From positions 13,924 through 77,923 of IMG/VR virus record IMGVR_UViG_3300022074_000019: a DNA stretch of 64,000 nucleotides; one strand, written 5' to 3'. Made by a program: the position numbers and the translations under genes. Origin of the DNA: a virus. The notes beneath the pieces are model-generated. The model saw only the letters and a program-made list of their open reading frames with translations. It was not told the origin of the DNA and searched no databases. This document shows positions 5,165-64,000 of this stretch, piece by piece (position 1 is the first letter of the stretch; each line of letters begins with the position of its first letter).

Positions 5165-5224
5165 TAAGGCCGGTTAACACCGGCTGCAGTTTGGGTAAAT
5201 TAAGTCTATACTTTTAACAGAACA

Positions 5225-9325: not shown

Positions 9326-9348
9326 AGCCGGCTAACGCCGGCTTTTTT
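9326..9348 (+). terminator. Intrinsic terminator built from the TAAC hairpin
   Basis: AGCCGGC-TAAC-GCCGGCT plus T-tract between convergent genes. Confidence 0.75.
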
Positions 9349-11283: not shown

Positions 11284-11315
11284 AACTATGTATCAATAAC
11301 TGTCCTTATTCTAAC

Positions 11316-11427
11316 TACCACGCTAACCACACTAAACCACGTAAGTTTCTATATACCTATTCTTTTATTCCTTCTACTTAGGTTTTAATTAAGCAGTTTA
11401 TAGGGACTAGTGTGGTAACTGCGGTTT
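11316..11427 (-). repeat. Iteron/AT-rich element copy A (putative replication origin)
   Basis: Three CCAC (11318, 11327, 11337) and GTGG/GCGG (11412, 11421) flank an AT-rich core; homologous to copies B and C. Confidence 0.65.
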
Positions 11428-12205
11428 ACTGTAGTTTTTGCAGCTGCTCGTATTTATCTTCTAGCAGGATGTGGCCGTATTGAGCTGTCATTCCTGCAGG
11501 AACATGACCAATAATCGAGGCAGCAATGCTGTATTCAATTCCCGCTTTACGCATTCGTGTTGCGATGTTGTGCCTAATGCCGTGAGCTGAGTGACCACAG
11601 CGCCGTTTCATGTAGCGACTGAAGTAATCACCCGCCTTAGGGTTAGTGTTAAAAGGGAAATTTTCGATAAATCTACGGTACTTATGATGGATAGGCACTT
11701 CTCGCCGGCTGGGCTCATTCTTGATTCCACGTACTTCATTATCGATAATGCTGAAGTGTGGGCATGGGTGATTTAAAATAATATCTTCTGGTTTCAAGCA
11801 GGCCAGCTCATTCACTCTGAAGCCGTGATACCACAGTCCCATAAAGAGTGGATGTTCTGTTAGTCCAACCTCTTCGTAATAACTAAGAGGAAGAAACGGA
11901 TATTTTTTCTTTCCTCGCTTTAATCCTTTCAATGATCCTCGCCACGGATTATCGTCAACAATTTCCATTTGCTCGTAGCCAATTTGCCAAATGGTTCCGC
12001 AGTACCCCAGTTGCGTTCTCACATAGCTCTGCTTGTATCCCAAATTGTTCAGCTGTGCTCGTCGAAGGTTGACAAATTTTTTGTCCACTTCTTCAACCGG
12101 TTTGTCTTCAAAACCTCTGATTGCGTACTGCCATCCCCTGAGCGTGGCAGGAGCAACAGGCTGATAGCCCGCAACCGCTTCCATCAGTTCTTGTGTTGTG
12201 AGCAT
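11426..12205 (-). CDS. Tyrosine recombinase/integrase
   Basis: Catalytic set intact: GFR, KN, HGIR, IIGH, QY. Confidence 0.9.
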   Translation of the reverse strand: MLTTQELMEAVAGYQPVAPATLRGWQYAIRGFEDKPVEEVDKKFVNLRRAQLNNLGYKQSYVRTQLGYCGTIWQIGYEQMEIVDDNPWRGSLKGLKRGKKKYPFLPLSYYEEVGLTEHPLFMGLWYHGFRVNELACLKPEDIILNHPCPHFSIIDNEVRGIKNEPSRREVPIHHKYRRFIENFPFNTNPKAGDYFSRYMKRRCGHSAHGIRHNIATRMRKAGIEYSIAASIIGHVPAGMTAQYGHILLEDKYEQLQKLQ

Positions 12206-32237: not shown

Positions 32238-33179
32238 TTACAAATAACCATTTACCTCTTCTTGGTTATCACGCAATGCACGAAGAGCTTTTTGCTCTAG
32301 TGTCCGTACACGATCTCGTGACATATTTAGGATTTGACCAATAGCTGTCATTGACATTGGCTCAAGAATATCCTCACCAATTCCATACCGCATTGAAATT
32401 ACTGCAGCTTGCATTTCAGGCAATTCTTCAATCAAATGGCGGATATCTTCTTTGATGAACTGACGCTCAAGCAGTGTGTCAGGTAGTTGTGTTTCGTCTT
32501 CCAATAGATCTACAAGAGCGGTATCCCTGTTTTCTCCAATCTTGATTTCCAAAGACGTTGGTTGACGCGCTTTACACATCAGATCTTTAATTTCGTCAAC
32601 AGTCATTCCCATGTAATCTGACAACTGAAATACATTCGGCATCTCCCCATTAAGTTGGCTTAGTTCCCGCTGGGCTTTCTTAAGTTTGTTGAGGTTCTCA
32701 GTAACGTGGATCGGTAGTCGGATAGCACGTGATTTTTCCGCAATCGCCCGAGTAATCCCTTGCCGTATCCACCAATAAGCGTAAGTAGAGAACTTATAAC
32801 CACGACCAGGATCAAACTTCTCAACACCACGGACGAGACCAATCGTCCCCTCTTGGATGATGTCCAAGAGTTCCATGTTCCTCTTTGTGTATTTCTTTGC
32901 GACACTAACGACGAGCCGGAGATTGGCCGTAACCATTTTGTCTTTTGCTTTTTCTCCATCACGAATATCACGACGAAGTTCTTTTAATGATACTCCTAAA
33001 GATGTAGCAAGTTCTTCATTATTAGGATTAGAAAGTAATTCCTTGCATGCTTTGATTTCCATCAGTCGTTGTACTTGACGACCAAGCAGGATTTCTTCGT
33101 CATGCTCCAAAAGAGGAATCCGTCCGATATCACGAAGATAAGAACGGACGGAGTCTCCACTTAATTTAATTGCACTCAT
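32238..33179 (-). CDS. RpoD-family (group 2-like) RNA polymerase sigma factor
   Basis: Regions 1.2-4: DSVRSYL, ANLRLVVSVAKKY, KFSTYAYWWIRQ, SRDRVR.LE.KAL; no region 1.1. Confidence 0.95.
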   Translation of the reverse strand: MSAIKLSGDSVRSYLRDIGRIPLLEHDEEILLGRQVQRLMEIKACKELLSNPNNEELATSLGVSLKELRRDIRDGEKAKDKMVTANLRLVVSVAKKYTKRNMELLDIIQEGTIGLVRGVEKFDPGRGYKFSTYAYWWIRQGITRAIAEKSRAIRLPIHVTENLNKLKKAQRELSQLNGEMPNVFQLSDYMGMTVDEIKDLMCKARQPTSLEIKIGENRDTALVDLLEDETQLPDTLLERQFIKEDIRHLIEELPEMQAAVISMRYGIGEDILEPMSMTAIGQILNMSRDRVRTLEQKALRALRDNQEEVNGYL

Positions 33180-50697: not shown

Positions 50698-52194
50698 TTA
50701 CTTTCTTTTTCCAATTATGCCAAGCTCAAATATTTTTGGATCTAGGCCCATATCTGGGGTATCTTCACTATAGTTCTGTAGCATGTTTGGGTAAATTGGT
50801 GACTGATAAGCCTCGTTTAGTTGTGACAAATCTTTTGTAGCTGGCTTGGGTTCAATGCTGCTTGGTGATTGTGCGTCAGCAGGCTTAGCAGGAGTGGTCA
50901 AGTATTGGCTCAGGAATTCTTGACCAAATTCCGTCTGATTACGCATATCGCCACGGATTTTGTCATACCCCTCCTGGCTGATTTCGTTGTAATTACCTTC
51001 AGAGTCCTTAATTGCGATTTTGCCGTCTTTGCGGAGGATGTTTTGAGCAGCGTTAGTTCGTTGCATCAATTCGAGTGGGCCAGCTCCCATCGGGGCATCA
51101 AGGAATGCACGGCCTCGTGCGGAGATTCCAGTACCTTTTTCAGTTTTTGGAGCTGCTGGTTGTCCATAGGTGGGATTCTGTGCAAGGAATTTCTCTCTTT
51201 GCCTCGCTCCGCGAGGGAGGGCGCGATTTTTCGTCTGATCCACTTCAAGAGCACGAGTTTGATCGCTCGCATCAGGCAGTGGGCTTGCACCAGACTGAGG
51301 ATCCAATCCATAGGTTCCAGGACGATAGTTTTCAGCCATTCCAGTACCAAGGCCTTTGAGCTCAGGCGTCGTCATATCTCCTTGACGCAATTTGCCGCCA
51401 TAGAGCTTGTCAAATTCAATACCATCCTGTTGAAATACTTTTGTAGATGTAATTGGCTCAGATCCAGCAGGAAGGTTGACCGATTCGAATCCTGATGTCT
51501 GTTTTTTGGTATTTGCCAATTCAATTCCTTTATTTGCAAGGAATACTTCATACTGAGCCCAGTTCATGGGCATATTTCCAGTATTTGGGCTCGTTACTGT
51601 TCGATCCAACTGCTGACTGCCGAATCCAGCACCAGATCGATAATCCTCGGCAGTTCTGCCTGCTCTCTGCTCAGTATCTTTGTAATCATCCGGCAGTTGA
51701 CCAGACATCCCAGGCAAAGTGACACTTTCGTCGTATGCAGCAAGATTTGTGTTCACACTAGGTGGAAGTTGTCCATATACAGGTTTTTCTTGTTCATTCA
51801 GTGGATTAAAAGCTGCCCTACCTGATCCTCTACCCGAACCTGCGGTATTAATATCTAAATTATCTTTCATGTATTGACCAATACCAGCACCAATTGCCAA
51901 TCCTGTTGTGAGAGTGCCTAAGCTGCCAGTAATACCTGGTGTCTTCGGCATTAATCCTCTGAGATTTTTTACATTCTTTCCTTTTTGCAGTTCTCGTGAA
52001 ATTCTTTGTGCTTCACGCATGTCATAATTAGTCTGCTGCTGAGGTGTGCGTGCACTTGGTGCAACTGGCTTCCCACCACTTAGTTTATTCCGCAGAAAAT
52101 CTTGTGATCTTTGGAAAATATTGCGATCAGGGTTGTTTTGACGTGCAATTTCTGCATCAAACTGTGCTTGCTCCAGAACACTTTTTGGAAACAT
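50698..52194 (-). CDS. Large putative internal virion protein
   Basis: 498-aa ORF, TAGAAT -10. Confidence 0.6.
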   Translation of the reverse strand: MFPKSVLEQAQFDAEIARQNNPDRNIFQRSQDFLRNKLSGGKPVAPSARTPQQQTNYDMREAQRISRELQKGKNVKNLRGLMPKTPGITGSLGTLTTGLAIGAGIGQYMKDNLDINTAGSGRGSGRAAFNPLNEQEKPVYGQLPPSVNTNLAAYDESVTLPGMSGQLPDDYKDTEQRAGRTAEDYRSGAGFGSQQLDRTVTSPNTGNMPMNWAQYEVFLANKGIELANTKKQTSGFESVNLPAGSEPITSTKVFQQDGIEFDKLYGGKLRQGDMTTPELKGLGTGMAENYRPGTYGLDPQSGASPLPDASDQTRALEVDQTKNRALPRGARQREKFLAQNPTYGQPAAPKTEKGTGISARGRAFLDAPMGAGPLELMQRTNAAQNILRKDGKIAIKDSEGNYNEISQEGYDKIRGDMRNQTEFGQEFLSQYLTTPAKPADAQSPSSIEPKPATKDLSQLNEAYQSPIYPNMLQNYSEDTPDMGLDPKIFELGIIGKRK

Positions 52195-52231
52195 TTTAAA
52201 TTGCTCGTATATTCTTTGTTTATTCTACAAA

Positions 52232-52534
52232 TTACGCGGATTTATCACCTTTCATTGCGTCACCAGCCATACGCATTTTCTTTGGCGCCGATTTTTTGGG
52301 CGATTTCTCCATATCAAGCGGTTTTTCACCTTCAATTCGCTCAATTGGCATGATTGATAGCTCATCTTCTCCACCGCCGTAACCGATTCCGATTAATGGT
52401 GAGCCTGGCAGGCACTTTTTAATCACCGGGTTGTAGGTATGACCAGGAGGGCAACCCGCTGCTCTAGCCAAAAGCTCTTCTTCCTCCATCATTTTGCGGA
52501 GTGTTGTTTTTCCAAACGGTGGAGGTACGCGCAT
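52232..52534 (-). CDS. Hypothetical protein (CPPG..C motif, RMAG)
   Basis: ATG MRVPPP downstream of a TACAAT -10. Confidence 0.5.
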   Translation of the reverse strand: MRVPPPFGKTTLRKMMEEEELLARAAGCPPGHTYNPVIKKCLPGSPLIGIGYGGGEDELSIMPIERIEGEKPLDMEKSPKKSAPKKMRMAGDAMKGDKSA

Positions 52535-52570
52535 TTTCTTGATATCCTTTCTTTCATTGTAGATACTACG

Positions 52571-52690
52571 AAACCACACTTGCCACACTATTTCTCTAAC
52601 CCTTGAAAATAAATATTAGTTAGAGAGGAAGAGAGAATAAAAAATAGGGTATATATAAACCTACGGTGGTTTTGCGTGGTTTCTGTGGTT
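52571..52690 (+). repeat. Iteron/AT-rich element copy B
   Basis: CCAC 52574, 52583; GTGG 52666, 52676, 52685. Confidence 0.65.
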
Positions 52691-52925
52691 TCACCTTTGA
52701 CTCCAAACAGTGGCCAAAAGCAAGCACGGGCAGAGATCTTACTTAGGGCGCAACGCAGCCATAATTAGTATTCCCACACAAACACACGTTCTAAATACAC
52801 AAGCACGGAAAAAAGACCCCTATAGGAGGTCAAAAGTGCTACAAAATTTTTGACACGTCTAATATACTACTTACCCCTCCGGTCACCCAAACAAAAAAAA
52901 TAGTAGTTAACGCAAGTTAAATCAG

Positions 52926-53248
52926 TTGCCTGCTTCGATTAACAGTTGCTTAAACTATTGTGTTCACTCACGTTTTACTTACGTAAACGTTCGTTCACTT
53001 TTGTTTTCTAACTCGTGTTTCACACGAGATTCACGCGAGTAAACTCAAGTTCATTCTACTTTAGTTAATTACTTTCGCAATAACTATTGTTTATTGAGAA
53101 TGAACTTTCGTTTCGTCTCGCGCTTATCAAATGCAATCGCTAGTTTCACTGAAGTTATTACCTTCGTTGAAACATCTGCGTAAACATTTGTATCCTTACT
53201 ATCAAGTTACTTGTCTACGTTGTTGAAAGAGGCAGGCAAATGCCTGCT
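52926..53248. other. Structured non-coding region (candidate ncRNA/leader or genome-end element)
   Basis: Nested helices, no long ORF, no GG dinucleotide in 52883-53230. Confidence 0.45.
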
Positions 53249-53277
53249 ATTGGTTCTGTGATCTTTGAAATTAAACC

Positions 53278-53484
53278 ATGGTCTACTGCGTTTACCATTG
53301 GAATACAACATCTGCATGCTGGGTTCCATCTGGCTACCTTACGGATGCATGTTACAAACAGATGCTGGCTCATAAGTATCACACTACTGGTAGTGCTGAG
53401 TTTATGATTGTCCATTGCTCTAAACAGCTTAATGCTAAACAGCGGAAGATCCGTGGTTGTCCTAATGCTGTCTTGAGTGTGTGA
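53278..53484 (+). CDS. Early hypothetical protein (W-x6-W family)
   Basis: HWNTTSACW. Confidence 0.5.
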   Translation: MVYCVYHWNTTSACWVPSGYLTDACYKQMLAHKYHTTGSAEFMIVHCSKQLNAKQRKIRGCPNAVLSV

Positions 53485-53697
53485 GTTACCTGGGTTGGTT
53501 CACTCCAACCTTTAACACCCGACGAATGTCGGGTCTTTCATCTGTGTAATTAGAACTGGTCACTATGTTCACTGAAACTATCGCATTGATTTGCTGCTTC
53601 GCTATTGGCTGTGCAGCTGGTATCTACTTTGATGATTGACACTTACACATGCCGGCTAACGCCGGCTGTATGTCTTGTGTCTTTAGTTATTACATTC

Positions 53698-53865
53698 ATG
53701 AACACTTTCACTCTCCAATACTGGAACGAACGTGACATGCAATGGAAAGGTTGCGGTGTTTCATCTACTGACCTCGCCATTGTTCAGTTGCGTATGAGCG
53801 GCTTCAAGAAGCAGTGCAACAACTGTGTTCGTTTCCGTATTGAACGTGAACTCATTGCCGGCTAA
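53698..53865 (+). CDS. Early hypothetical protein (W-x6-W family)
   Basis: ATG 31 nt after a hairpin; stop TAA supplied by the next hairpin loop. Confidence 0.6.
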   Translation: MNTFTLQYWNERDMQWKGCGVSSTDLAIVQLRMSGFKKQCNNCVRFRIERELIAG

Positions 53866-53903
53866 CGCCGGCTCTTTCTTTTATTACTCATTTGATATTT
53901 CTC

Positions 53904-54029
53904 ATGCTTCGTTTCATTGGTATCTGTGCTCTGTATACCGTTGGTAGCATCCTCGTCCTTGGCGCCGCTGCTAACTACGCAGACAACATTCTTAAGCCAG
54001 CACTTGAGCGTCCTGCTCAGATCCGTTGA
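53904..54029 (+). CDS. Small membrane peptide
   Basis: MLRFIGICALYTVGSILVLGAAA...; between hairpins. Confidence 0.5.
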   Translation: MLRFIGICALYTVGSILVLGAAANYADNILKPALERPAQIR

Positions 54030-54083
54030 CATATGCCGGCTAACGCCGGCTTTTGTCTTTTATGTAATTCATATTCATTCATT

Positions 54084-54269
54084 ATGTTTATCGCTGGTAT
54101 GTGTCGTATCTGGAGTAAGAAGCAAGGTGGCTACTGGGTCACCATGCCTTACGCCGCACGCGGTTACTCCGACTGTGAGCGTTTGGTTGAGGACTACGAA
54201 GATCGCTTCGGATCTCTCTATCAATACGCAATCACTGCTGATCACGACCTCTGTCGTCCATGTGTTTGA
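54084..54269 (+). CDS. Early hypothetical protein
   Basis: Between hairpins. Confidence 0.6.
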   Translation: MFIAGMCRIWSKKQGGYWVTMPYAARGYSDCERLVEDYEDRFGSLYQYAITADHDLCRPCV

Positions 54270-54323
54270 ACCTTATGCCGGCTAACGCCGGCTTTGGTTC
54301 TTTGTGTTCATTACATACCTCGT

Positions 54324-54467
54324 ATGTCTAACTTCACTTACGTTCCATCCGTAACAACGGACGTTGAACTCCAAGCTTGGATTGAAGAACAAGTTGCTCG
54401 TGTGCATCACCACAATGAGCAGTGGCTTCAAGACCAAGATGAAGAGTACACCGAGTCCCTCCTGTGA
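54324..54467 (+). CDS. Small acidic protein
   Basis: 31 nt after a hairpin. Confidence 0.5.
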   Translation: MSNFTYVPSVTTDVELQAWIEEQVARVHHHNEQWLQDQDEEYTESLL

Positions 54468-54568
54468 CTACGGTTTTCATCGTTGCTCTTGTTTTCTGGT
54501 GGATCTGGAAGATCACCGACTGACCGGGTAACCCCCGGTCTTTTTTCTGTTGAACTTATATCTGTGAT

Positions 54569-54748
54569 ATGCATATCAACTCCTGGTGTGTCTATGACGC
54601 CAAGACTGACGAAGTCATCGGCGTATGGGACACCTACAACCAAGCAGAGACTTACTTCGATGATCATGTTGATCTATTCGAAGGATATCTGCAGTTGTTT
54701 CCTTGGGCTGAGTATACCTTCGATCAGCCTTCCCTCTCTATCTCCTGA
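54569..54748 (+). CDS. Small acidic protein
   Basis: Between hairpins. Confidence 0.55.
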   Translation: MHINSWCVYDAKTDEVIGVWDTYNQAETYFDDHVDLFEGYLQLFPWAEYTFDQPSLSIS

Positions 54749-54808
54749 GAGTTATCGCCGGTTAACACCGGCTCTTTTTTTTTATGTCATTCGTTTCTAC
54801 TCATTCTT

Positions 54809-55099
54809 ATGCAAGTCCTTGCAACTCTTTACAAGCGCACGAAAGATGGCAATCTTTCCGCTTGGAACTTCTGTGTTGTTGAAGAGACGCAGCAATGCTT
54901 CGCCATAGGCGGTGGTGACCTGAAAGTCATTTCAGCCTTGGATAAGAAGCATCTGCGGAACATCTATCAGTCCTTTATCCGCTATGGATACAAGGCTGAA
55001 GTTCCTGCTAAGAAGATGCTTATCTCTGATCCTTGGGAGTCTCAACTCCCTTTGCAGGAGCAGCTTCTCCTTGACAGTCTTGCCTCAGAGCTTGTTTGA
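54809..55099 (+). CDS. Hypothetical protein
   Basis: Between hairpins. Confidence 0.6.
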   Translation: MQVLATLYKRTKDGNLSAWNFCVVEETQQCFAIGGGDLKVISALDKKHLRNIYQSFIRYGYKAEVPAKKMLISDPWESQLPLQEQLLLDSLASELV

Positions 55100-55172
55100 A
55101 GACCTTCCCGGCTAACGCCGGGTGGGTTTTTCCTTGCCCTATAGGGCATGTTCATTTATGTAATAGCTTCAC

Positions 55173-55403
55173 ATGAAACTTTCGTTCCCTGGTGCGTCCA
55201 TGTCTATGCGTCTCTTCGAGCGCGTCGATACCCTGGACGAACAGTATGACATCTTCGATGTTGGCGTTGAACAAGCTGATGGCTCCATCGACAGTATTGC
55301 CGTTGGTGGTTCCTTCAGCTACGCCAAGTCTCTCCTTGGCAAGGCCAATGAGGCTGTCGATAACAAGATCGCCAAGGTTGCAAAGGCTGCAACTGAGGTC
55401 TGA
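55173..55403 (+). CDS. Hypothetical protein, strong codon bias
   Basis: Between hairpins. Confidence 0.6.
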   Translation: MKLSFPGASMSMRLFERVDTLDEQYDIFDVGVEQADGSIDSIAVGGSFSYAKSLLGKANEAVDNKIAKVAKAATEV

Positions 55404-55439
55404 TCCAGTAGGCCCTGCTAACGCAGGGTCCTTTTTTAC

Positions 55440-55748
55440 TTATTGCAGATCAATTGTTCCACTCGACTGTTGATCCATCATCATCTGCGTCAGGTCGTAT
55501 AGACCTTTGCCTGCCAGCGTGACGCCCCCTGCCGGTAGCGCGTACCTCGCCGCTGCGTTTACGCCCAACATCCCGTATGCGGCTGCCTTCTCCGCTGCTG
55601 TGCCGGACGGTGCATACGTGATTGGGAATCCGGACGTCATCTGAACGAGGGGGTGTGCTCCCTTTGAAACCTTGGCTGCATATGCGTCATCGAACTCACG
55701 CAGAGATGCTCCAGCTTTCCTCAGTTTGTCCTTAACTTTACCAAGCAT
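55440..55748 (-). CDS. Late-type protein (RKAG) inverted in the early region
   Basis: TAGAAT -10 upstream on the minus strand. Confidence 0.55.
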   Translation of the reverse strand: MLGKVKDKLRKAGASLREFDDAYAAKVSKGAHPLVQMTSGFPITYAPSGTAAEKAAAYGMLGVNAAARYALPAGGVTLAGKGLYDLTQMMMDQQSSGTIDLQ

Positions 55749-55979
55749 TTCCCATAATCCAGTCCGTCCATACCATTCTATCTGTATGGCTGCGGGGGAA
55801 TTGCGGGGGAGTTGGCAAATCTATTGCCCACTACGTGGGGGCGCCGAGTTTTTAGCGGAAACTAATGTTCAGCTGAATACATAACTATCAAATAAGGAAT
55901 AGAATTTATATATAAAAGTCTCTAAATGAGCAGGACCGGCTAACTCCGGTTCCTCCTGTTAATACACTCGAAATGATAA

Positions 55980-56510
55980 ATGTCTATCACAAAGATAGTT
56001 GTGGCTGCCGTTGCAGTAGCAGTCGGTTGCTTAGAACATGCACAAGCCACACCCCCATCTTTTGAACATCATGTTCAACTTATGGATGCCGTTAAGTCTA
56101 CAGGTATAGCACTCGATATTAATCCTTTTGAGTGCACAGATGGTGTCGAAGGGTTTTACACGCCAACCAGCAAACGTCTTGCGATCTGTCAAGACAACGC
56201 TACTCAACAAGGTGAAGAAGTTTCGTGGACGCTAGACGATTTCGATACTCTGCGACACGAAGCTCACCATCTTGTCCAAGGCTGCATGGTTGGAGAAAAC
56301 TTCGATAACAAGCTTGGATTCGTTTACCGCGATCCAAAGACACTTGTTCTAAATAATCTAGGATATAAACAAGCAATGTCCGTTATTCGCCTGTATCAAC
56401 GAGCAGGCTTTAGCGGAGTAATCATTGGCTTGGAACTAGAAGCCGCAGCTGTTGCTGCAATGAATAACCCTTTGGAACAAGTTCAAGATATCAATCGCTT
56501 CTGCTTTTGA
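55980..56510 (+). CDS. Exported HExxH metallopeptidase-like protein
   Basis: Signal-peptide-like N-terminus; LRHEAHH...ELEA. Confidence 0.65.
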   Translation: MSITKIVVAAVAVAVGCLEHAQATPPSFEHHVQLMDAVKSTGIALDINPFECTDGVEGFYTPTSKRLAICQDNATQQGEEVSWTLDDFDTLRHEAHHLVQGCMVGENFDNKLGFVYRDPKTLVLNNLGYKQAMSVIRLYQRAGFSGVIIGLELEAAAVAAMNNPLEQVQDINRFCF

Positions 56511-56560
56511 ACCACTCACCGGCTAACGCCGGTTTCTTTTGTTCTACGTGCAATTTAATC

Positions 56561-56725
56561 ATGACACCTTATTCCGATTATCAAGAGCTTGACGCTGGCC
56601 CTGATGCCACTCTTCAAGCGCTCTTTATCAAGGACCTTCAGTCAATTCAAGCAAAGGCAACCTACTGGGATGTCTATTGCGCAGTTGAACCGTCTGCTCC
56701 TGAATGCAAGGTTCACGATAACTGA
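56561..56725 (+). CDS. CP12-like peptide (C-terminal motif only)
   Basis: YCAVEPSAPECKVHDN matches the CP12 CxxxPxxxEC tail. Confidence 0.55.
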   Translation: MTPYSDYQELDAGPDATLQALFIKDLQSIQAKATYWDVYCAVEPSAPECKVHDN

Positions 56726-57452
56726 TCCCTTTATTCACTAAAACCATGTCTAGATCTGAGCAACGTTTTAAGTCTGTCTGCAATGAGATTCGTCTGTATC
56801 GCAATATGGGCGATCGAGAAGCTCTTGCTAATGCCACTATTGAATGGCGGCAGTTACACGATTCACTTGGTGAAGATCGTGCCAGTCAACTTATACGTGA
56901 GATGAATGCAAATTCCTAATTACCTTCATCACTCGAAGAAAGAGGCTAAGCGTAAGCTCAAGCCTCAAGCTATGCGGCAGCGTAAAGCCGCGTTGAAAGC
57001 TCTCAAACGTAAACTTACTCAAGCTAAATGATCATCTGGAATTCACAAGACCTCGTCCTTGCTGTTATCGGTAGTGTGGGTATCCTCACTACTGGTGTAG
57101 TTGCACTATACGGATTCCGTAGAAACCGTAATGGCTGCGGACGTTATCAATAAGCTCAATGTTTATCTTATGAATGTTGATCTAATTTGACTATGCTTAC
57201 ATCTCTATTCCCGTATTTCGCTCCTACCTATATCGTTATTCCTGAATCTCGATATACCAAGTATCAATTGGAGGAGCTTGAGAACAGGCTATCTATTGTC
57301 GATGCCCAGCTCGACACTCTTTCAGATACTAAGAAAGAACTCGATACGCTCAAGTCTGAGCTTGTCGATAAAATTAAAGAACTAAAGCAAACTGAATAAA
57401 CCAGTGCCGGTAAATACCGGCTCTTTTTTTCAATGTAAATCGAGGATAAAAT

Positions 57453-57575
57453 CATGGCTCGTTCACTTTCTGGTCACACCTTTGTTAAAGGCACTCCCAA
57501 GAAAACTCGCCAAGGGCAAGGAACGCATTCCAAGCCCAAGCACAACAAGAAGAAGATGCGTGGTCAAGGCAAATG
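57453..57575 (+). CDS. Small basic peptide
   Basis: PKKTRQGQG...RGQGK; between hairpins. Confidence 0.55.
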
Positions 57576-57629
57576 ATCTCCTGCCGGTTAACACCGGCTT
57601 TTCTTTTGCTTGTCTTTTTACGCAATTAT

Positions 57630-57836
57630 ATGAGCGTCGATTTCAAAATCATCAGCAACACTGCTGTCGCTGGTATCTCCCTCGTCATGCCCATGACTGA
57701 GGAGGCTTACCACTACATCGAAGATGAGTGCGACATGACCGTCCTTAACGCCGGTTGTGCACCTATCGACAGCGAGTTTGTAGGTGACTTCATCTCTGAT
57801 GCAGGTTGGTCCAAGTTCTCTGCAGAACTTGTCTGA
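57630..57836 (+). CDS. Hypothetical protein
   Basis: Between hairpins. Confidence 0.55.
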   Translation: MSVDFKIISNTAVAGISLVMPMTEEAYHYIEDECDMTVLNAGCAPIDSEFVGDFISDAGWSKFSAELV

Positions 57837-57890
57837 TCTAACTCAGCCGGCTAACGCCGGTTGAATTCTTTCGTAAGTTTTACGAATTAT

Positions 57891-58412
57891 ATGCTCAGAG
57901 CGATTAGCACTAAACATTTTGTTGGCCTTGTTCGTGCCGAACCATGCAAATTCAAAATTGTTCATGCATTCGACTTTGACGACACCATTACTCTCAAGCC
58001 TAAAGACTTTGACAATACTGGCCTAACTACTAGTGATTACTTTGATGCTGCTCGTCGCTTTACTCCTGACGAAGCAATCGTAGATCTCTTGCGTCTTCAG
58101 CATAAGATCGGAGATCGCATTGCTATTGCTACAGCTAGACCTCCTGAAAGGCTTGTTGAGACTTATCAATGGCTAGTCAAGTATCGAATTCCTTTTGACG
58201 TGCTTATGCACTCAACAGGTGTGATTACAAGTGGCATGGCTAAGCAGCACATGCTTAAACATCTACGTAAGTCTTACCGAATGGTTGGCACACTCATTGA
58301 TGATAGTCCTTGGAACATTGAAGGTGCACGTTTACAACGTATCAAACGCATTCATGTTCGTAAGAACTGTGCCTACTGGGCATCTCACCCTGAAATTGTT
58401 TTCAAGGTTTGA
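57891..58412 (+). CDS. HAD-family phosphatase (polynucleotide phosphatase-like)
   Basis: FDFDDT, ATAR, K, IDDS motifs. Confidence 0.75.
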   Translation: MLRAISTKHFVGLVRAEPCKFKIVHAFDFDDTITLKPKDFDNTGLTTSDYFDAARRFTPDEAIVDLLRLQHKIGDRIAIATARPPERLVETYQWLVKYRIPFDVLMHSTGVITSGMAKQHMLKHLRKSYRMVGTLIDDSPWNIEGARLQRIKRIHVRKNCAYWASHPEIVFKV

Positions 58413-58587
58413 TGTCTGTACGCATACTCATTATCTACGCAACCCTTTCTGTAGGTCTCAACATGAATGTCACAAATGATCGATTTGTTCTGCTACCATT
58501 TCTTCCACAACGTCTATCCGTCGTTGTTATAAGACAGTAAGTCCGGTTAACACCGGCTTTTCTTTTTGATGTAACTGACTCAAATAT

Positions 58588-58974
58588 ATGAGCACAATTC
58601 CAAACGGCATCTCTTCTGATGACCTGAAAGCCTTGATGGCTACAGCTCACATCGATTGTGAAGACGTTGAGATTGAGGATAATTCTGATCAACCTCAAGT
58701 CAAGACAAAGAACGGCTCTTTTACTCAAGCAGAAATCGAAGCTTTAGCTGAGGCTACTGATGAAGAGCTCTTCATGATCTGCCCTCATCCAATTGCTCAC
58801 AAAGTCCTGGTTCTTCAAATCTTGGACAAAATGATTCATTGGCATGAGCAGTGCGCTCTTAACAAAGATGAGCCTATTGAAGCGGCTGCTTGGGCAGCTG
58901 ATGCAGGCAAATTGCATGCAGTCAAAACCTTGTTCCAACTCATCTCGTTTGGTGATCAAGATTTCACTTGTTGA
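58588..58974 (+). CDS. Hypothetical protein
   Basis: Between hairpins. Confidence 0.6.
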   Translation: MSTIPNGISSDDLKALMATAHIDCEDVEIEDNSDQPQVKTKNGSFTQAEIEALAEATDEELFMICPHPIAHKVLVLQILDKMIHWHEQCALNKDEPIEAAAWAADAGKLHAVKTLFQLISFGDQDFTC

Positions 58975-59030
58975 AAGCTCAAGACCGGCTAACGCCGGTC
59001 CTTTTCTTCTGTGTTCTTTCTTTGCAAATC

Positions 59031-59489
59031 ATGCAAAACCAAACTCAACTTCGCTCTTACGCTCAGTTCAACACCTTCACTGTGACTGGACGTATCCAGT
59101 TCGCCAAGAAGGTTGCTGGCAAGCGCGGTGACTTCCTGTCTGTGACTGTTATCACCAACTTCCTCAACGACGACGAGGGTTATACGATCGATTTCCTCGA
59201 TAGTGACAACCTGCTGTCTCTGTTCGAGCAAGGCTATCTGCCTGTTGGTCGTCAAGTCACCCTGACTGGTCACGTTGACAGCTTTGGTCAGACCTACACC
59301 GATCCCAAGACCGGTGAGCTTGTCATGCTCAAGCGTCCTCAGATGAAACTGAGTGGCGTCAACATTCCGACCGGTGGCCTTGGTCCTATGCCTAAGGCTG
59401 TCACCGAACAGCGTCGTCAGAACATTGTTGTTCGACCTTCTGCAGCTGAGCAAGTTGCACCTGAAGTTCAGGAAGCTCCTGCCTTCTGA
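59031..59489 (+). CDS. Single-stranded DNA-binding protein (OB fold)
   Basis: N.F.VTGRI...GRQVTLTG; C-terminal EAPAF; strong codon bias. Confidence 0.65.
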   Translation: MQNQTQLRSYAQFNTFTVTGRIQFAKKVAGKRGDFLSVTVITNFLNDDEGYTIDFLDSDNLLSLFEQGYLPVGRQVTLTGHVDSFGQTYTDPKTGELVMLKRPQMKLSGVNIPTGGLGPMPKAVTEQRRQNIVVRPSAAEQVAPEVQEAPAF

Positions 59490-59769
59490 TGTATCAGCTC
59501 CCTCTAACGAGGGGGCTTTTTTATATTCTCTATCCTCATATTGAACATGGGTCCACTATTCGGAAATCATCCCTTGCTTTTTCAAATTGCATCTAGAATG
59601 CAAGAACTAGGTTTTACTGAAGAAGAAAGCCTTGAAGTCGTTATTGGCGGTAGCTCTGTCTATGAAATTGACGGAGCTGGTACAAAATGGGCTCCTGTAA
59701 AAGGCACTCGTAAATACAATAGCGACGCCTTTATTGTTATTCGTAAACCTAAACCAGTAATAAGCTCAA

Positions 59770-59994
59770 ATGGTTGAACTACTTACTTACTACGTTATTT
59801 CTGGTCTCCTTATTGTGGGAGCACCAGCAATCTTTTTTCTGATTGTTTTTATGCCTGCTCTTCAGAATACGAAGGGTAGAATTGTTGGTTATCGAGATCA
59901 CAAGATATTTGGCAACTCATCAGTCTATGAGAATACTCATGGCGATAACACTAAATTCTTTCTTCAAATCCCTTATGATTCCAGAACTTCGTGA
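59770..59994 (+). CDS. Small membrane protein
   Basis: One TM helix. Confidence 0.5.
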   Translation: MVELLTYYVISGLLIVGAPAIFFLIVFMPALQNTKGRIVGYRDHKIFGNSSVYENTHGDNTKFFLQIPYDSRTS

Positions 59995-60186
59995 AGAGTT
60001 TGTGTTTGACTTAGCTAATCACATACTCAAGAAATCAACAAAAGCTGGTGTTTGGGCTATGGCTGTAGATCGCGTTTGCGATGTACTCCTGACTAAAACA
60101 GACGAAGAGCTAATTGATATGGCTCCTAGTAATCTTATCGTCTGTGATAAGACCAAGCACAATAAGAACAAACCTAAAGGCTTCTA

Positions 60187-60381
60187 ATGAAATTTACTAT
60201 AGAAAAATCTCGCTATGGTCTCTACACAAGTGTGTTTGAGGACGGTACAAAAGGCACCACTGCACTTACTGAAGAGGCTTGCCACTTTGTAACTGTCAAC
60301 ATCCGTATCCCTGTACTTCAGGGTACATGGGACGGAAACACTTCTGTTGTTGGATCAGCAGTCGTAGGTGGCAAGCTTTGA
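60187..60381 (+). CDS. Hypothetical protein
   Basis: Coupled ORF. Confidence 0.55.
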   Translation: MKFTIEKSRYGLYTSVFEDGTKGTTALTEEACHFVTVNIRIPVLQGTWDGNTSVVGSAVVGGKL

Positions 60382-61134
60382 TTACTTGCGTCGTTTACCG
60401 TTACCGTTAATCGCTTTTTCTAGGATTACGGTGTCAGCATTTATGGTGACCTGGCGGTCATCGCCGCCATTTTGACGCACTTGACTGTCGTAGTTACGCA
60501 GCTCGTCTCGTCCAACCTGTTTAATAATATTATTCATAACTGAATCTTTCATAGCCTGAGCTTCTACTTTCTGAGCCTCACGGACAGGACTCATGTCTAA
60601 TTTTTCACGCATAGATGGATGCTTTTCCAATAAATCATTAATGTAATTATTCATATCAGGCACAGCCTTAGTCATGTACTGCTTACCAACATGTTTACGA
60701 TAATCAAGAGGTAATTCGCTTGCATCTAAGATGTCTTGCACCATACCAAATGGTTTTGCATTTGGATGAAATTGATATCCTCTCTTTATTGCATACTCGT
60801 GAATGCCACTTTGATGAATATCCTGCGGCATATTAATTAAATTTAAAATGTTATTACCTGTTGCGCCATACTGGTTTAAATAGGCAGTAAGTTCTGCCGC
60901 TTCTGCATCAGTTAGCCCTTTGTATAAAGGATCTAACGTTTTAAGAATAGCTCTGTGGTGAGCCTGTTCGCCAGGTCGAGCCTTCATCAACTCATAAACA
61001 ACAGTATCGTCTGAATTCTTGGCACGACGCATCATGTTTTTGCCAGTTGCATCATTTAGTTGTGATTTATAAGCCTCTCCAGCTTTATTTGCTAAACCTG
61101 GAGACTGATAATCTCTAGCTGCACCACGAGTCAC
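60382..61134 (-). CDS. AHH/HNH-like nuclease-fold protein
   Basis: QAHH...N..NL..MP...H...IH. Confidence 0.5.
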   Translation of the reverse strand: MTRGAARDYQSPGLANKAGEAYKSQLNDATGKNMMRRAKNSDDTVVYELMKARPGEQAHHRAILKTLDPLYKGLTDAEAAELTAYLNQYGATGNNILNLINMPQDIHQSGIHEYAIKRGYQFHPNAKPFGMVQDILDASELPLDYRKHVGKQYMTKAVPDMNNYINDLLEKHPSMREKLDMSPVREAQKVEAQAMKDSVMNNIIKQVGRDELRNYDSQVRQNGGDDRQVTINADTVILEKAINGNGKRRK

Positions 61135-61248
61135 ACATATACATACCTATGACTATTTATTCATCTAGGTATCACTATCTACATCTACATCGTATCTAAT
61201 TTGTATTAACAATTAGAATAAAATAAAGGCGCTAAGTATTTACTAGCA

Positions 61249-61872
61249 ATGTCATTTCAAAGAGATAAAGACGGAAATTATCTTGTTCCTATCGTCTCCT
61301 TAGGCGAACGCCTGCGTGATAACTTCGGATTAACTATCAAAGAGCATTCGCACTTTGACAAAGTTGATAACGTTCATTCACCTAATAGCTATCACTATTA
61401 CGACGAAGCACTTGATATTCAAGACTGGCGTGGAGGATCAGGTGCAGGTGCTGAAGGTTTTAATGGTGTCGGTTATCAACAGCGCACCAAAAATCTGCGT
61501 GACTTGATGCGCGGCTCAGGTGCTGAAGTGATCGGACCTGGTGACATGGAAGGTCACGACACTCACCTTCACCTGGCAGCGAAAGGAGGGATCTTCAAGC
61601 TCAACGAAGATCAATACAACTATCTTTTTAGTGATACTTCTGGTGGTCGTTCTTCTACTTTTGCTCCTCTTACTCCTTCTTCTTCAACTCCTTTAGATCC
61701 TTCTACTCCTTCGCCTGTAGCTGATACTCAAGTTGCACCAGCAACTGATTACACTAATATGTCTAAGCAGCAGATTAATGATGCATACGACAAGCTTCGC
61801 ATGGCTGGTGATGTGTTTGCGGCTGAAAAAGAAGGCATGAAGATGCACAAGGCATTCTTTAATGAGAAGTAA
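61249..61872 (+). CDS. Zn peptidase (M15-like) putative peptidoglycan hydrolase, RMAG tail
   Basis: SYHYYDEALD (H-x6-D) and HLH. Confidence 0.6.
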   Translation: MSFQRDKDGNYLVPIVSLGERLRDNFGLTIKEHSHFDKVDNVHSPNSYHYYDEALDIQDWRGGSGAGAEGFNGVGYQQRTKNLRDLMRGSGAEVIGPGDMEGHDTHLHLAAKGGIFKLNEDQYNYLFSDTSGGRSSTFAPLTPSSSTPLDPSTPSPVADTQVAPATDYTNMSKQQINDAYDKLRMAGDVFAAEKEGMKMHKAFFNEK

Positions 61873-62078
61873 AAGGAGCAAGCTACTATGAATAAACATG
61901 AGAAGAAACTAATTAAGTTTCAAAATCAAGCTCAAGACTGTGTGTCTCGTATAGAGGCTCAAGATATTCTGCGTAAAGCAGAAAAAGCACGTTGCAAACT
62001 ACTCGCCAAAAAGCTGTTCAAACAGTAAATCCACCGGCTAACGCCGGTTGAGTTTTGTTTGTCCTTTACAAAGACACC

Positions 62079-62297
62079 ATGGACCAAGAGTTCGTGATGA
62101 TCAGCAGAGGCGAAGTTGAAATGCTTCTGCTTCAATTCAAACGTGCCGAAGGCTTTTGCGATAAAGCAAGATCTCCTTCACGTAAACCAACCATAGAAGA
62201 GTTGATGATGGAACCTACGTGTTTCTATTCAGGTGCATCTGGTTATGCACGTGCCACTCTTCGCAATGCAATTCAAACTTTAGAATCAAACCTATGA
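62079..62297 (+). CDS. Hypothetical protein
   Basis: 30 nt after hairpin 62033. Confidence 0.55.
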   Translation: MDQEFVMISRGEVEMLLLQFKRAEGFCDKARSPSRKPTIEELMMEPTCFYSGASGYARATLRNAIQTLESNL

Positions 62298-62464
62298 GTG
62301 ACTTCCCTTTCGACGATATCGAAAGGCTGTATCGGGAGGAGGATGCTCTTCCTCCCATTCCAAATTGGCCTTCAATATTTAGTGATGAACCAAAGCCTAA
62401 AAAACAACAAGATCAAGCAAACAAAAGCACTGTAAAATAATATAAGCAGTGACTTTTATTAGCA

Positions 62465-63127
62465 ATGGGTAAGAAGAAAAAGAAGTCCTCTTCTTTCGAT
62501 GGCAAGGCTACTGGTTATGACTATCTAAGAGACAAATTTAACAAGAACTACGAACCTCATCGTAGTGATCGTATGTCTGGAGAAATTTATAATCGTGAAC
62601 GTGATGAAGCTTTTCAGCGTTATTTGATGACAGGCGACAAATATTCTGGCATGGATTCAGGTATGCGTCGATATCAAGAAAAACTAGATAAAAAACTTGA
62701 TAAAAAGCCTTCTGTTGAAGATAGGCTTTTTGAAGCAGGTATTCCTCCCTCACAGTGGCAATATTACGCTAATAAAGCTGGCATTACTAATGTGAATAGC
62801 AAAGGTGATGCTAAAAAGCTCATTGATGTTTATGACAAAGATGAGCGTTATCAAGGACCTGACAAGCCTTTTGAACCTGAAGTTCCTGAACTTCCTGAAC
62901 CTCCATCAGAGCCTCAGTTTCTCATCACTGAAGAAGAAGATCTTGCTAGAGATACAGCACGAGATGAGCGCATTGCTGACTATGAAAAAAATCGTGCTCT
63001 TACAGGATTAATTGGTGATGAAGACACCCAAAAATATCTTGATGATTATAAGTTCAATGTCGCTTCTGGACTTAGTAATGCAGGTATCAGTACTCGTGGA
63101 CCTGAAGCTCCTTTATTTATCCTTTGA
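62465..63127 (+). CDS. Hypothetical protein
   Basis: TAAAAT -10; 220 aa. Confidence 0.6.
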   Translation: MGKKKKKSSSFDGKATGYDYLRDKFNKNYEPHRSDRMSGEIYNRERDEAFQRYLMTGDKYSGMDSGMRRYQEKLDKKLDKKPSVEDRLFEAGIPPSQWQYYANKAGITNVNSKGDAKKLIDVYDKDERYQGPDKPFEPEVPELPEPPSEPQFLITEEEDLARDTARDERIADYEKNRALTGLIGDEDTQKYLDDYKFNVASGLSNAGISTRGPEAPLFIL

Positions 63128-63402
63128 TCATGTTTACTTCTGAAGATTTACAAGCAAGATTTGAAGAAAAGATGGGCATGGAACTTACTCCAACAGCCCC
63201 TCAATCTCCAGCTGAAGGTTCATTCCAAAATTTACCTAACTCCAATATGGAAACTAATTCAGGTGCAACTCCTACACCTGTATATGGAGATGCTACCTCT
63301 GATGGATTAGATTTTGCTAATAACTTTAAGATGAATGTTGCTGATCGTTTGGTGCCTGTCGAAGACGATGGGACAATTCGTCCTTCATCTATAAGATTTT
63401 AA
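63124..63402 (+). CDS. Hypothetical protein
   Basis: FKMNVA resembles YKFNVA in the upstream ORF. Confidence 0.55.
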   Translation: MIMFTSEDLQARFEEKMGMELTPTAPQSPAEGSFQNLPNSNMETNSGATPTPVYGDATSDGLDFANNFKMNVADRLVPVEDDGTIRPSSIRF

Positions 63403-63467
63403 CCACGTTAATAGTGTGGTATTTCAAATCAATTGCCCCGCAAGCAATGTGGGGTATTTTTGTGCTT

Positions 63468-63586
63468 AAAGCCACGCTACTTACCCCTACCCCATATAAA
63501 GAGTTTTAAAAAAGATAGAGAGGGGGAGTGTAATAAAAAAGAGATATATAGGAAACTACCGTGGCTAAGCGCGGTTTGCGTGGTTC
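63468..63586 (+). repeat. Iteron/AT-rich element copy C
   Basis: CCAC 63472; GTGG 63561, GCGG 63571, GTGG 63580. Confidence 0.6.
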
Positions 63587-63737
63587 TGCTTGGGGTATTC
63601 CAAGGCAGCATCCGTTGCAGCGCAAGCGAATACGAGCAAATAACCACATCTAAGCATCTACCGCACTAAATGTAGTTCTGTAAAAATGTAGTCATATTGA
63701 CACGTATAATTTCCCGGATCCTGCTCAAGAGGGCCTT

Positions 63738-63887
63738 TTGCAAAAACGTGTGACCGTCCTCTTGCCTGTGGACGTCCATCGGCGGCTCAAGCTCAAGAGC
63801 ATCGATGAAGACACTACGATGAATGCTCTAATACAGCACGCTGTATCTCTGCTACTACAGCAATCTTCACAAGAAAATCCGATGTAA
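63738..63887 (+). CDS. Ribbon-helix-helix (ParG/CopG-like) DNA-binding protein, not in ORF track
   Basis: TTG start; KRVTVLLPVDVHRRLKLKSIDEDTTMNALI; TATAAT at 63705. Confidence 0.65.
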   Translation: MQKRVTVLLPVDVHRRLKLKSIDEDTTMNALIQHAVSLLLQQSSQENPM

Positions 63888-64000
63888 TCAGATTTTTCTG
63901 TTTAACTGAATACCTTCTAAGGGCCGGTTAACACCGGCTTTTGATTTTGGTGTTCTATATACATGTCCAACACATGCCCGCGAATTTCACATCCGGCTGG

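Follow-up and report, generated by a model that had tools for sequence, protein, structure and literature searches.

The question raised by this locus is what a long series of nearly identical hairpins does between the small early genes of a phage. The window, by which we mean the whole stretch of 64,000 nucleotides that was analysed, covers bases 13924-77923 of the IMG/VR virus record IMGVR_UViG_3300022074_000019, a contig of 77.9 kb (hereafter G000), and coordinates below are those of the window. Between 53517 and 63938 a hairpin of the form CCGGY-TAAC-RCCGG recurs ahead of one small gene after another. The original prediction had offered three explanations, namely promoters like those of phage N4, RNA-processing, stabilising or terminator sites, and recombination sites for the shuffling of accessory genes. 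We give an even chance to the reading that the hairpins are terminator-type or attenuator stem-loops which double as recombination linkers, a promoter-less variant, outside the T4-like phages, of the promoter early stem-loops (PeSLs).

A pattern search was carried out with CCGGYTAACRCCGG, allowing up to two mismatches, on the window and on shuffled sequence. The window gave 18 matches to CCGGY-TAAC-RCCGG where the shuffles gave 0.31 ± 0.63, and every match lay on the + strand, bearing out both the excess of hairpins and the common orientation that had been claimed for them. The whole 77.9-kb contig gave 19 exact matches in the forward direction and none in the reverse, and TAAC is the loop in 20 of the 39 perfect G+C-rich hairpins with a 4-nt loop in the whole genome. 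With the variants at 53517, 54522, 57406 and 59500 included, the range 53517-63938 holds 19 hairpins, or about 1.8 per kb; like PeSLs, this is a conserved stem-loop between small early open reading frames (ORFs), here in 19-20 copies over 10.4 kb. Six further copies are found in the replication arm and none in the 43-kb late arm. The hairpin begins 3-10 nt past a stop codon, and in four units (across genomes) the TAA of the loop itself doubles as the stop. From the hairpin to the next ATG there are 27-36 nt in 16 units, so the near-fixed gap described earlier stands, with two of its values corrected: the gap before 59031 is 30 nt rather than 31, and that before 57454 is 32 nt. The units, all on the + strand, are as follows.

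53231..53248, + strand: first hairpin of the early arm, GGCAGGC-AAAT-GCCTGCT, with TGATCTTTGAAA at +11 (TGTTCTTTGAAA in strain L108)
53517..53534, + strand: GAAT-loop variant heading a 24-amino-acid (aa) ORF; the unit is absent in L108 and replaced in run X9
53651..53666, + strand: GCCGGC-TAAC-GCCGGC hairpin, 31 nt to the ATG at 53698
53857..53872, + strand: TAAC hairpin whose loop TAA is the stop of a 55-aa ORF; left partner of a 178-bp cassette indel
54035..54050, + strand: TAAC hairpin, right partner of the 178-bp indel; variant-contig homology runs from 54034
54277..54292, + strand: TAAC hairpin with TGTTCATTA at +13
54522..54540, + strand: variant GACCGGG-TAACC-CCCGGTC with a 5-nt loop, then T6
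54757..54772, + strand: GCCGGT-TAAC-ACCGGC, then TCT9; spanned by an RNA-library contig
55107..55148, + strand: TAAC hairpin plus a second G+C hairpin, TGCCC-TATA-GGGCA, from the conserved TG; 50-nt spacer
55413..55428, + strand: terminal hairpin CCCTGC-TAAC-GCAGGG with T6, facing a convergent - strand gene; no TGTYC motif
55935..55950, + strand: degenerate copy with a C.T closing mismatch, heading a 176-aa gene, 3' of an A+T-rich stretch and a - strand gene
56518..56533, + strand: TAAC hairpin, 27 nt to the ATG
57406..57421, + strand: GCCGGT-AAAT-ACCGGC, then TCT7; spanned by an RNA-library contig
57583..57598, + strand: TAAC hairpin, 31 nt to the ATG
57847..57860, + strand: TAAC hairpin heading a 173-aa gene cassette that is absent in L107 and L108
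58543..58556, + strand: TAAC hairpin; homology of the strains without the 173-aa cassette restarts at 58540-58543
58983..59000, + strand: 7-bp TAAC hairpin with TGTTCTTTC at +12
59500..59513, + strand: CCCTC-TAAC-GAGGG hairpin, then T6
62033..62048, + strand: TAAC hairpin, then TGTCCTTTA; L108 and X9 replacements stop exactly at its 5' edge
63923..63938, + strand: TAAC hairpin, then TGTTCTATA; four population upstream contexts meet at its 5' edge
5169..5184, + strand: replication-arm copy outside 53517-63938, with orthologous copies in the relatives G001, G002, G003 and G004
9326..9343, + strand: strongest copy (7 bp, -13.2 kcal/mol) with a T-rich tail, where the + and - arms converge

Fold energies of the hairpins ranged from -5.7 to -13.2 kcal/mol, and whole intergenic spacers folded better than their shuffles (z -2.3 to -3.9). 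Covariation was assessed in 61 distinct units from G000 and four relatives, in which all six stem pairs had changed on both sides. Because these units were chosen by a perfect 5-bp stem, covariation of the inner pairs is partly built in and only the free outer pair is unbiased. This pair was formed in 59 of the 61 units, which upholds the earlier claim that the stems covary, and six of the outer pairs were G.U. Since G.U pairs form on the sense strand only, a structure in RNA (or in sense single-stranded DNA) is favoured. UAAC is one of the UNAC tetraloops, a class that Zhao et al. 2012 (cited in PMC12550061) compared with GNRA loops. An Rfam search of 52000-64000 returned nothing meaningful.

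Terminator-like sites in the array region numbered 36 against 9.7 ± 3.0 in shuffles, a fourfold excess, and included every TAAC copy in the range except the degenerate one at 55935. The copies have the layout of an intrinsic terminator, with a G+C stem, a T-rich stretch within 0-2 nt of it, and the orientation of the gene 5' of it. At 9326 and 55413, the two copies previously picked out as terminator-like, the hairpin faces a convergent - strand gene and has the longest T run (copies facing convergent genes carry T5-T6), and no downstream motif follows. Of the three earlier explanations the second, a terminator or a processing or stabilising site, is the best anatomical fit.

From this anatomy we infer that the hairpins terminate transcription, stabilise messages, or both. 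An intrinsic-type RNA stem-loop, with a G+C stem of 5-7 bp and a UAAC tetraloop, would form after almost every small early gene; internal copies, through their U-rich tails, would impose a partial polymerase stop (attenuation), protect the 3' end of the upstream message, or do both. A ribosome terminating at a stop codon 3-10 nt upstream or within the loop would melt the 5' arm of the hairpin, so that read-through would depend on translation. The 27-36 nt that follow, G-poor and unstructured, would offer the next gene's ribosome a landing pad without a Shine-Dalgarno sequence, and the need for about 30 nt of such a pad, together with pressure for compactness, would be reason enough for the ATG to lie at a near-fixed distance. 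Both copies facing convergent genes, with their longer T runs, would act as full stops.

The same stem-loops could be read without any termination. Early transcripts would then be long, a host endonuclease such as RNase E would cut them in the U-rich, unstructured leader, and the hairpin would only process or stabilise RNA by capping the resulting 3' end against exonucleases, so that monocistronic messages arise. Stable hairpins followed by single-stranded, A/U-rich, G-poor leaders suit such a scheme, and cyanobacterial RNase E cuts single-stranded A/U-rich RNA (PMC8682795). The T-G-T-Y-C motif of the leaders is, however, unlike the A(-3)/U(+2) signature of that enzyme, and the copies at convergent junctions resemble true terminators. 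In the RNA-library run X17 (contigs only, low depth, 18 of 30 bins, possibly containing DNA), two contigs begin 9 and 13 nt past the hairpins at 54035 and 58983, although these are contig ends and not RNA ends; two others span the hairpins at 54757 and 57406, which fits read-through, weakly so since the library may hold DNA. We regard processing alone as unlikely, though it stands first among the alternatives.

The leaders themselves share more than their length. The hairpin tail is U-rich for 10-12 nt and is followed by T-G-T-Y-C-T-T and then by A/T-rich, nearly G-free DNA up to the ATG. T-G-T-Y-C sits about 13 nt past the hairpin, and its position follows the hairpin rather than the ATG. Relatives about 70% identical carry it too, at sites that are not orthologous, and both copies facing convergent genes lack it. 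Taken without its hairpin, a leader shows no structure (-0.1 kcal/mol, z +0.94), and 33 leaders gave a mean fold z of -0.22, no different from shuffles. No Shine-Dalgarno sequence was found in the last 17 or so leader positions (22-38 when anchored on the loop), where G occurs in 0-6 of 33 units per position; the T-rich leaders without Shine-Dalgarno that had been described were thus seen again, and they are also G-poor. A second stem-loop starting from the TG was considered, as many TG...CA pairings can be drawn by eye, and was rejected because leader energies match those of shuffles; a genuine second G+C hairpin exists only in units with spacers of roughly 50 nt. An upstream mini-ORF starting at D-T-G was rejected as well, its frames and stop codons being inconsistent between units, and a likeness to T7-type primase sites (GTGTC/TTGTC) was dropped as coincidence.

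In PeSLs as described (PMC2839356, PMC4122927), the stem-loop terminator precedes a sigma-70-like early promoter, after which come a Shine-Dalgarno sequence and a start codon. Sigma-70-like sites in the region numbered 13 against 21.2 ± 4.6 expected, which is below chance, and a consensus scan found no -35/N17/-10 promoter between hairpin and ATG in any spacer; at 27-36 nt, the spacer is too short for a full one. A -10 signal at -12 to -7, as for a leaderless start, was not seen either, 12 of the 33 units having A(-11) and 9 having T(-7). Most G000 spacers have no A in their first 10 nt and hence no -10 element. The use of TGTYC as a -35 element was rejected, since it would put the -10 within the coding sequence, and no TAnnnT is seen in the first codons.

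These results bear directly on the possibility that the units are true PeSLs, with an unconventional promoter in the spacer that starts transcription at or near the conserved TG, perhaps with the group-2 sigma factor that the phage encodes. The T-G fits the rule of a pyrimidine at -1 and a purine at +1, the spacers of the relatives G001 and L035 often have TA-containing hexamers 5-6 nt 5' of it, and the two RNA-library contigs mentioned above begin near it. The sigma factor is of the cyanobacterial type, and in the late arm a few terminator hairpins directly precede the probable late promoter motif described below. Against this stand the missing sigma-70-like sites, the poor agreement at -11 and -7, the lack of A in most G000 spacers and the misplaced -10, and we consider hidden promoters quite improbable.

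To the first of the earlier explanations, promoters of the N4 type, with a hairpin extruded on the template strand for a phage RNA polymerase to read, we give almost no credence. Small G+C-rich hairpins lie 5' of early genes in a common orientation, which amounts to resemblance only. The loops are of 4 nt (TAAC) and not 3 nt, the hairpins lie directly past stop codons and have U-rich tails, and no promoter geometry fits. No RNA polymerase gene was found among the proteins scanned against PHROGs and Pfam, and the largest ORF of the whole 77.9-kb genome, which is 98% complete by CheckV, is a primase-helicase of 739 aa, so a virion RNA polymerase is not encoded.

The + strand arm of the phage runs from about 52.5 kb in the window to the end of the contig and on from the contig start to 9.3 kb in the window, with the small early genes followed by psbA, transaldolase (talC), ribonucleotide reductase (RNR), thyX and mazG, and it also carries an exonuclease, the primase-helicase and a family A DNA polymerase. 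The - strand arm holds the terminase, virion structural and tail-fibre genes. Bases 1-785 of the contig and bases 77139-77923 (63216-64000 in the window) are 97.7% identical, with 18 mismatches, so that the two ends of the assembly join up; the repeat probably reflects a circle assembled across strain variants rather than a true terminal repeat. The closest isolate is Synechococcus phage S-EIV1 (terminase 54% and one virion protein 47% identical), and near-identical DNA is present in seawater and marine metagenomes from many studies, from which it follows that this is an uncultured marine cyanophage. With cyanophage genes and no phage RNA polymerase, use of the host RNA polymerase is indicated. 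The phage sigma factor (32238-33179, - strand) is a full-length group-2 protein with regions 1.2, 2, 3 and 4, and scores 396.7 bits against TIGR02997, above the cut-off.

The leader motif resembles boxA of antiterminator sites. The 9-mer T-G-T-Y-C-T-T-T-A at +12 to +21 is matched at a mean of 6.45 of 9 positions against 5.11 ± 0.17 in shuffled leaders, although the T-rich background inflates such matches and the consensus was derived from the same units before the comparison was made. As RNA, U-G-U-Y-C-U-U-U-A differs only at position 3 from the core of E. coli boxA, U-G-C-U-C-U-U-U-A, with G2, C5 and U6-U8 in common; G2, C5 and U6 of E. coli boxA do not tolerate transversions (PMC3177189). 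In the rrn leaders of two marine Synechococcus genomes (L190 and L191), a hairpin GGGA-GCGA-UCCC is followed after 12 nt by GUUCUU(U/C)AAG. The block after the hairpin reads ACGGUGUUGUAAGUUCUU(U/C)AAGCGG and in L191, a metagenome-assembled genome, lies about 450 nt 5' of the 16S gene; the phage units have the same order and nearly the same spacing. The internal transcribed spacer of these rrn operons holds GAACCUUGACAAC. Judged by their sequence, the leader block and GAACCUUGACAAC are likely the host's boxB/boxA elements.

In a nut-like scheme, the UAAC hairpin would act as boxB and U-G-U-Y-C-U-U-U-A as a boxA loading NusB/NusE, perhaps with a small basic phage protein that recognises the UAAC loop, and the terminators would be read through. 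Each unit would then mimic host boxB-boxA fused to a leaky terminator, a "stop unless modified" signal whose own override travels with the cassette; like the scheme as a whole, we hold this improbable, and it comes second among the alternatives. The shared layout agrees with it, as does the order boxB, boxA, boxC of rrn antiterminators (PMC10250234). The best copy of the motif lies at the arm's first hairpin (TGTTCTTTGAAA in L108), and neither terminal hairpin has the motif. A pair of early proteins of 40-41 aa (56906-57031 and 57454-57576, + strand) are very basic, with isoelectric points (pI) of 11.7 and 12.0 and 30-34% Lys+Arg, and are candidates for nucleic-acid binding. On the other side, only about a third of the G000 units (some 7 of 22) match at 7 or more of 9 positions, one site per operon would suffice, and the host block is a boxA by inference only. 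Antitermination complexes of the rrn type are, besides, known mainly for countering Rho, which cyanobacteria are not known to have.

The second half of the preferred reading, that the terminator-like stem-loops also serve as recombination linkers, comes from a comparison of strains. Over 52500-64000, the window was compared with contigs from three DNA runs and an RNA-library run, and with strain L108; a metagenome scan had given three close strains, of which L108 is 93% identical overall. Among 21 distinct homology boundaries, 6 lie within 5 nt of a hairpin 5' edge (P = 2e-6 for the whole region and 0.005 for non-coding DNA only). A 178-bp unit with a 41-aa gene is present or absent exactly between the hairpins at 53857 and 54035, and the alignments on its two sides have 30 bp in common, which is what recombination between two repeats should give. 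L108 lacks the unit made of hairpin 53517, its leader and the 24-aa ORF. The unit made of hairpin 57847, its leader, the 173-aa gene and a tail stands in place of 47 nt of L107 and L108 and ends at hairpin 58543. Other replacements stop at 53513/53856, of which 53856 is the 5' edge of the hairpin at 53857, and at the 5' edges of the hairpins at 62033 and 63923. Indels and replacements between close relatives thus occur at the modules, as they do at PeSLs. The module of 30-45 bp recurs between cassettes and so would supply portable short homology, and the hairpins look like leaky stops that also mark the places at which single genes are gained, lost and swapped between strains. Two further joints, one from 54780 to 59231 in X7 (side 22) and a loose end at 54058 matching the tail of hairpin 9326, were set aside as artefacts of the repeat.

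That cassettes are exchanged at the hairpins was part of the third earlier explanation, and the strain comparison supports such a PeSL-like role in shuffling. Its other part, that the hairpins are attC-like sites cut as folded single-stranded DNA by the phage tyrosine recombinase, appears very improbable. Co-oriented single-gene cassettes with breakpoints at hairpins, and a tyrosine recombinase gene at 11426-12205 (- strand), are what such a system would have. The hairpins are, however, perfect and of 14-18 nt, without extrahelical bases or R/L boxes, and at the 178-bp indel a clean overlap of 30 bp was seen, as short-homology recombination would leave it; indels without hairpins show 4-9 bp of microhomology. 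The recombinase has 259 aa, of which only the C-terminal catalytic part matches Pfam Phage_integrase (32.6 bits). Its scores lie far below every curated cut-off, and it reaches 23.8 bits against the XerA/integron-integrase model NF040815, whose cut-off is 220. Three homologous elements of about 130 bp (52560-52700, +; 63457-63597, +; 11306-11440, -) contain GTGG boxes at intervals of about 10 nt, together with a TATATA block. The two direct copies bracket the hairpin array, with TTGACACGT(C)TAAT 90-150 nt further 3', and the inverted copy abuts the recombinase gene; this placement might be counted for a site-specific system, yet these elements are a more likely target of the recombinase than the hairpins. 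Just 3' of the second element, a small ORF at about 63741-63887 (+) has a ribbon-helix-helix-like sequence, LPVDVHRRLKLKSIDEDTTMNALIQHAV, and is replaced in L108.

Several points weigh against terminators doubling as linkers. The gene at 59770-59994 is precisely absent (59773-59974) in L107, L108 and X17 and has no flanking hairpins, and hairpin-free indels of gene size are common in the lineage, including one between G002 and L076 in the replication arm. A foreign unit carrying the same hairpin forces the alignment to start there, so the site of crossover is not proven by the boundaries: the strain data make the hairpins shared linkers, not proof of where strands crossed. About 15 terminators in series, without a recognisable internal promoter, would starve distal genes unless they are weak or overridden. 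The U-tract is poor in several copies, and we too found no clean one at 53651, 55107, 57847 and 62033. The copy at 55935, which is preceded by a - strand gene and, as had been pointed out, by no gene in its own direction, lies upstream of its gene, probably in the 5' untranslated region. Finally, the invariant TAAC loop, the CCGG core and the T-G-T-Y-C at fixed distance exceed what a plain terminator needs.

Among known systems, the closest are the PeSLs (Arbiol et al. 2010 PMC2839356; Comeau et al. 2014 PMC4122927), which crowd the hyperplastic regions of T4-like phages, where they flank indels and give rise to mini-circles. In both cases a short conserved terminator module occupies nearly every early intergenic space, co-oriented with the genes and flanking small ORFans, and is linked to indels and replacements between close relatives, which here include a clean excision between flanking copies. 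The array differs in that it has neither the -35/N17/-10 promoter nor the Shine-Dalgarno sequence, its spacer of 27-36 nt leaving no room, and in that its stem-loop is far more uniform, with a UAAC loop and a CCGG core. As promoter and Shine-Dalgarno sequence are absent and the phage is not T4-like, the array is PeSL-like in its part in genome plasticity and not a PeSL as defined. Intrinsic terminators or attenuators share with it the G+C stem of 5-7 bp, the 4-nt loop, the U-rich tail and the position just past stop codons, and its strongest copies lie at convergent junctions; an invariant loop, nearly invariant stems, an unusually close stop codon (3-10 nt), a fixed start-codon distance, a conserved 3' motif and some 15 copies in series without promoters set it apart.

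The C(UUCG)G hairpins that Tuerk and colleagues are said to have reported in 1988 from T4 intercistronic regions offer another case of one unusually stable tetraloop hairpin recurring between phage genes, but the array loop is UAAC of the UNAC class, its copies are denser and its geometry is fixed. The boxB-boxA elements of rrn leaders and lambda nut sites likewise combine a small hairpin, about 12 nt, and a single-stranded motif like U-G-Y-U-C-U-U-U-A; the array differs from them in having about 20 copies against one or two, a motif that is degenerate in most copies, and a U-rich tail on the hairpin. Integron attC sites are also hairpin repeats separating co-oriented, promoter-less single-gene cassettes 3' of one control region, but they are imperfect hairpins of 57-141 bp with extrahelical bases and core sites, used by IntI, and the array has none of these.

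Descriptions of PeSL-type linkers have until now been confined to T4-like myoviruses, and the same principle would here be at work in an unrelated and widespread marine lineage. The repeated terminator module would insulate small accessory genes and supply portable homology for swaps; as it contains no promoter, the terminator part alone seems to be enough. This promoter-less form bears on how phages assemble and turn over their early gene sets for host takeover, and CCGGY-TAAC-RCCGG plus TGTYC can serve as a sequence tag for cassette boundaries in metagenomes of the lineage. Because the host is not known to have Rho, the dense hairpins next to stop codons suit the study of termination by cyanobacterial RNA polymerase, and the array is also suited to asking whether translation or Nus factors override it.

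In relatives about 70% identical, the hairpin is conserved along with its orientation and spacing, with 29-34 nt to the ATG in most units. Matches to the exact pattern numbered 12 in G001, 8 in G004, 4 in G002 and 4 in G003, always co-oriented with genes, and copies per genome came to 20 in G000, at least 17 in G001, 9 in G004 and 4-5 in G002 and G003, rising with the number of small early cassettes. The nearest isolate, S-EIV1, has no such hairpins. An exact 16-mer was found in 84 IMG/VR stretches, many of them with a single copy and near chance level for a 16-mer, and several copies were present in contigs related to G000; one exact copy in the unrelated genome G005 was discarded as a chance match. 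A megablast of the array against the phage collection gave no match, and one array protein had no close relatives in IMG/VR. The genes of the array are mosaic with respect to the relatives, some being syntenic at 30-70% protein identity, many unique and a few relocated. The genes at 59770-59994 and 59975-60187 (+), for instance, have homologues elsewhere in G001 (14360 and 19460).

The late arm shows a signal of its own. A recurring motif, TACAATAGAA / TGTAGAATA(G/T), is found 15-35 nt 5' of - strand genes within 10000-52600 and is probably a late promoter signal. At a few sites this candidate late promoter motif lies directly 3' of a terminator hairpin.

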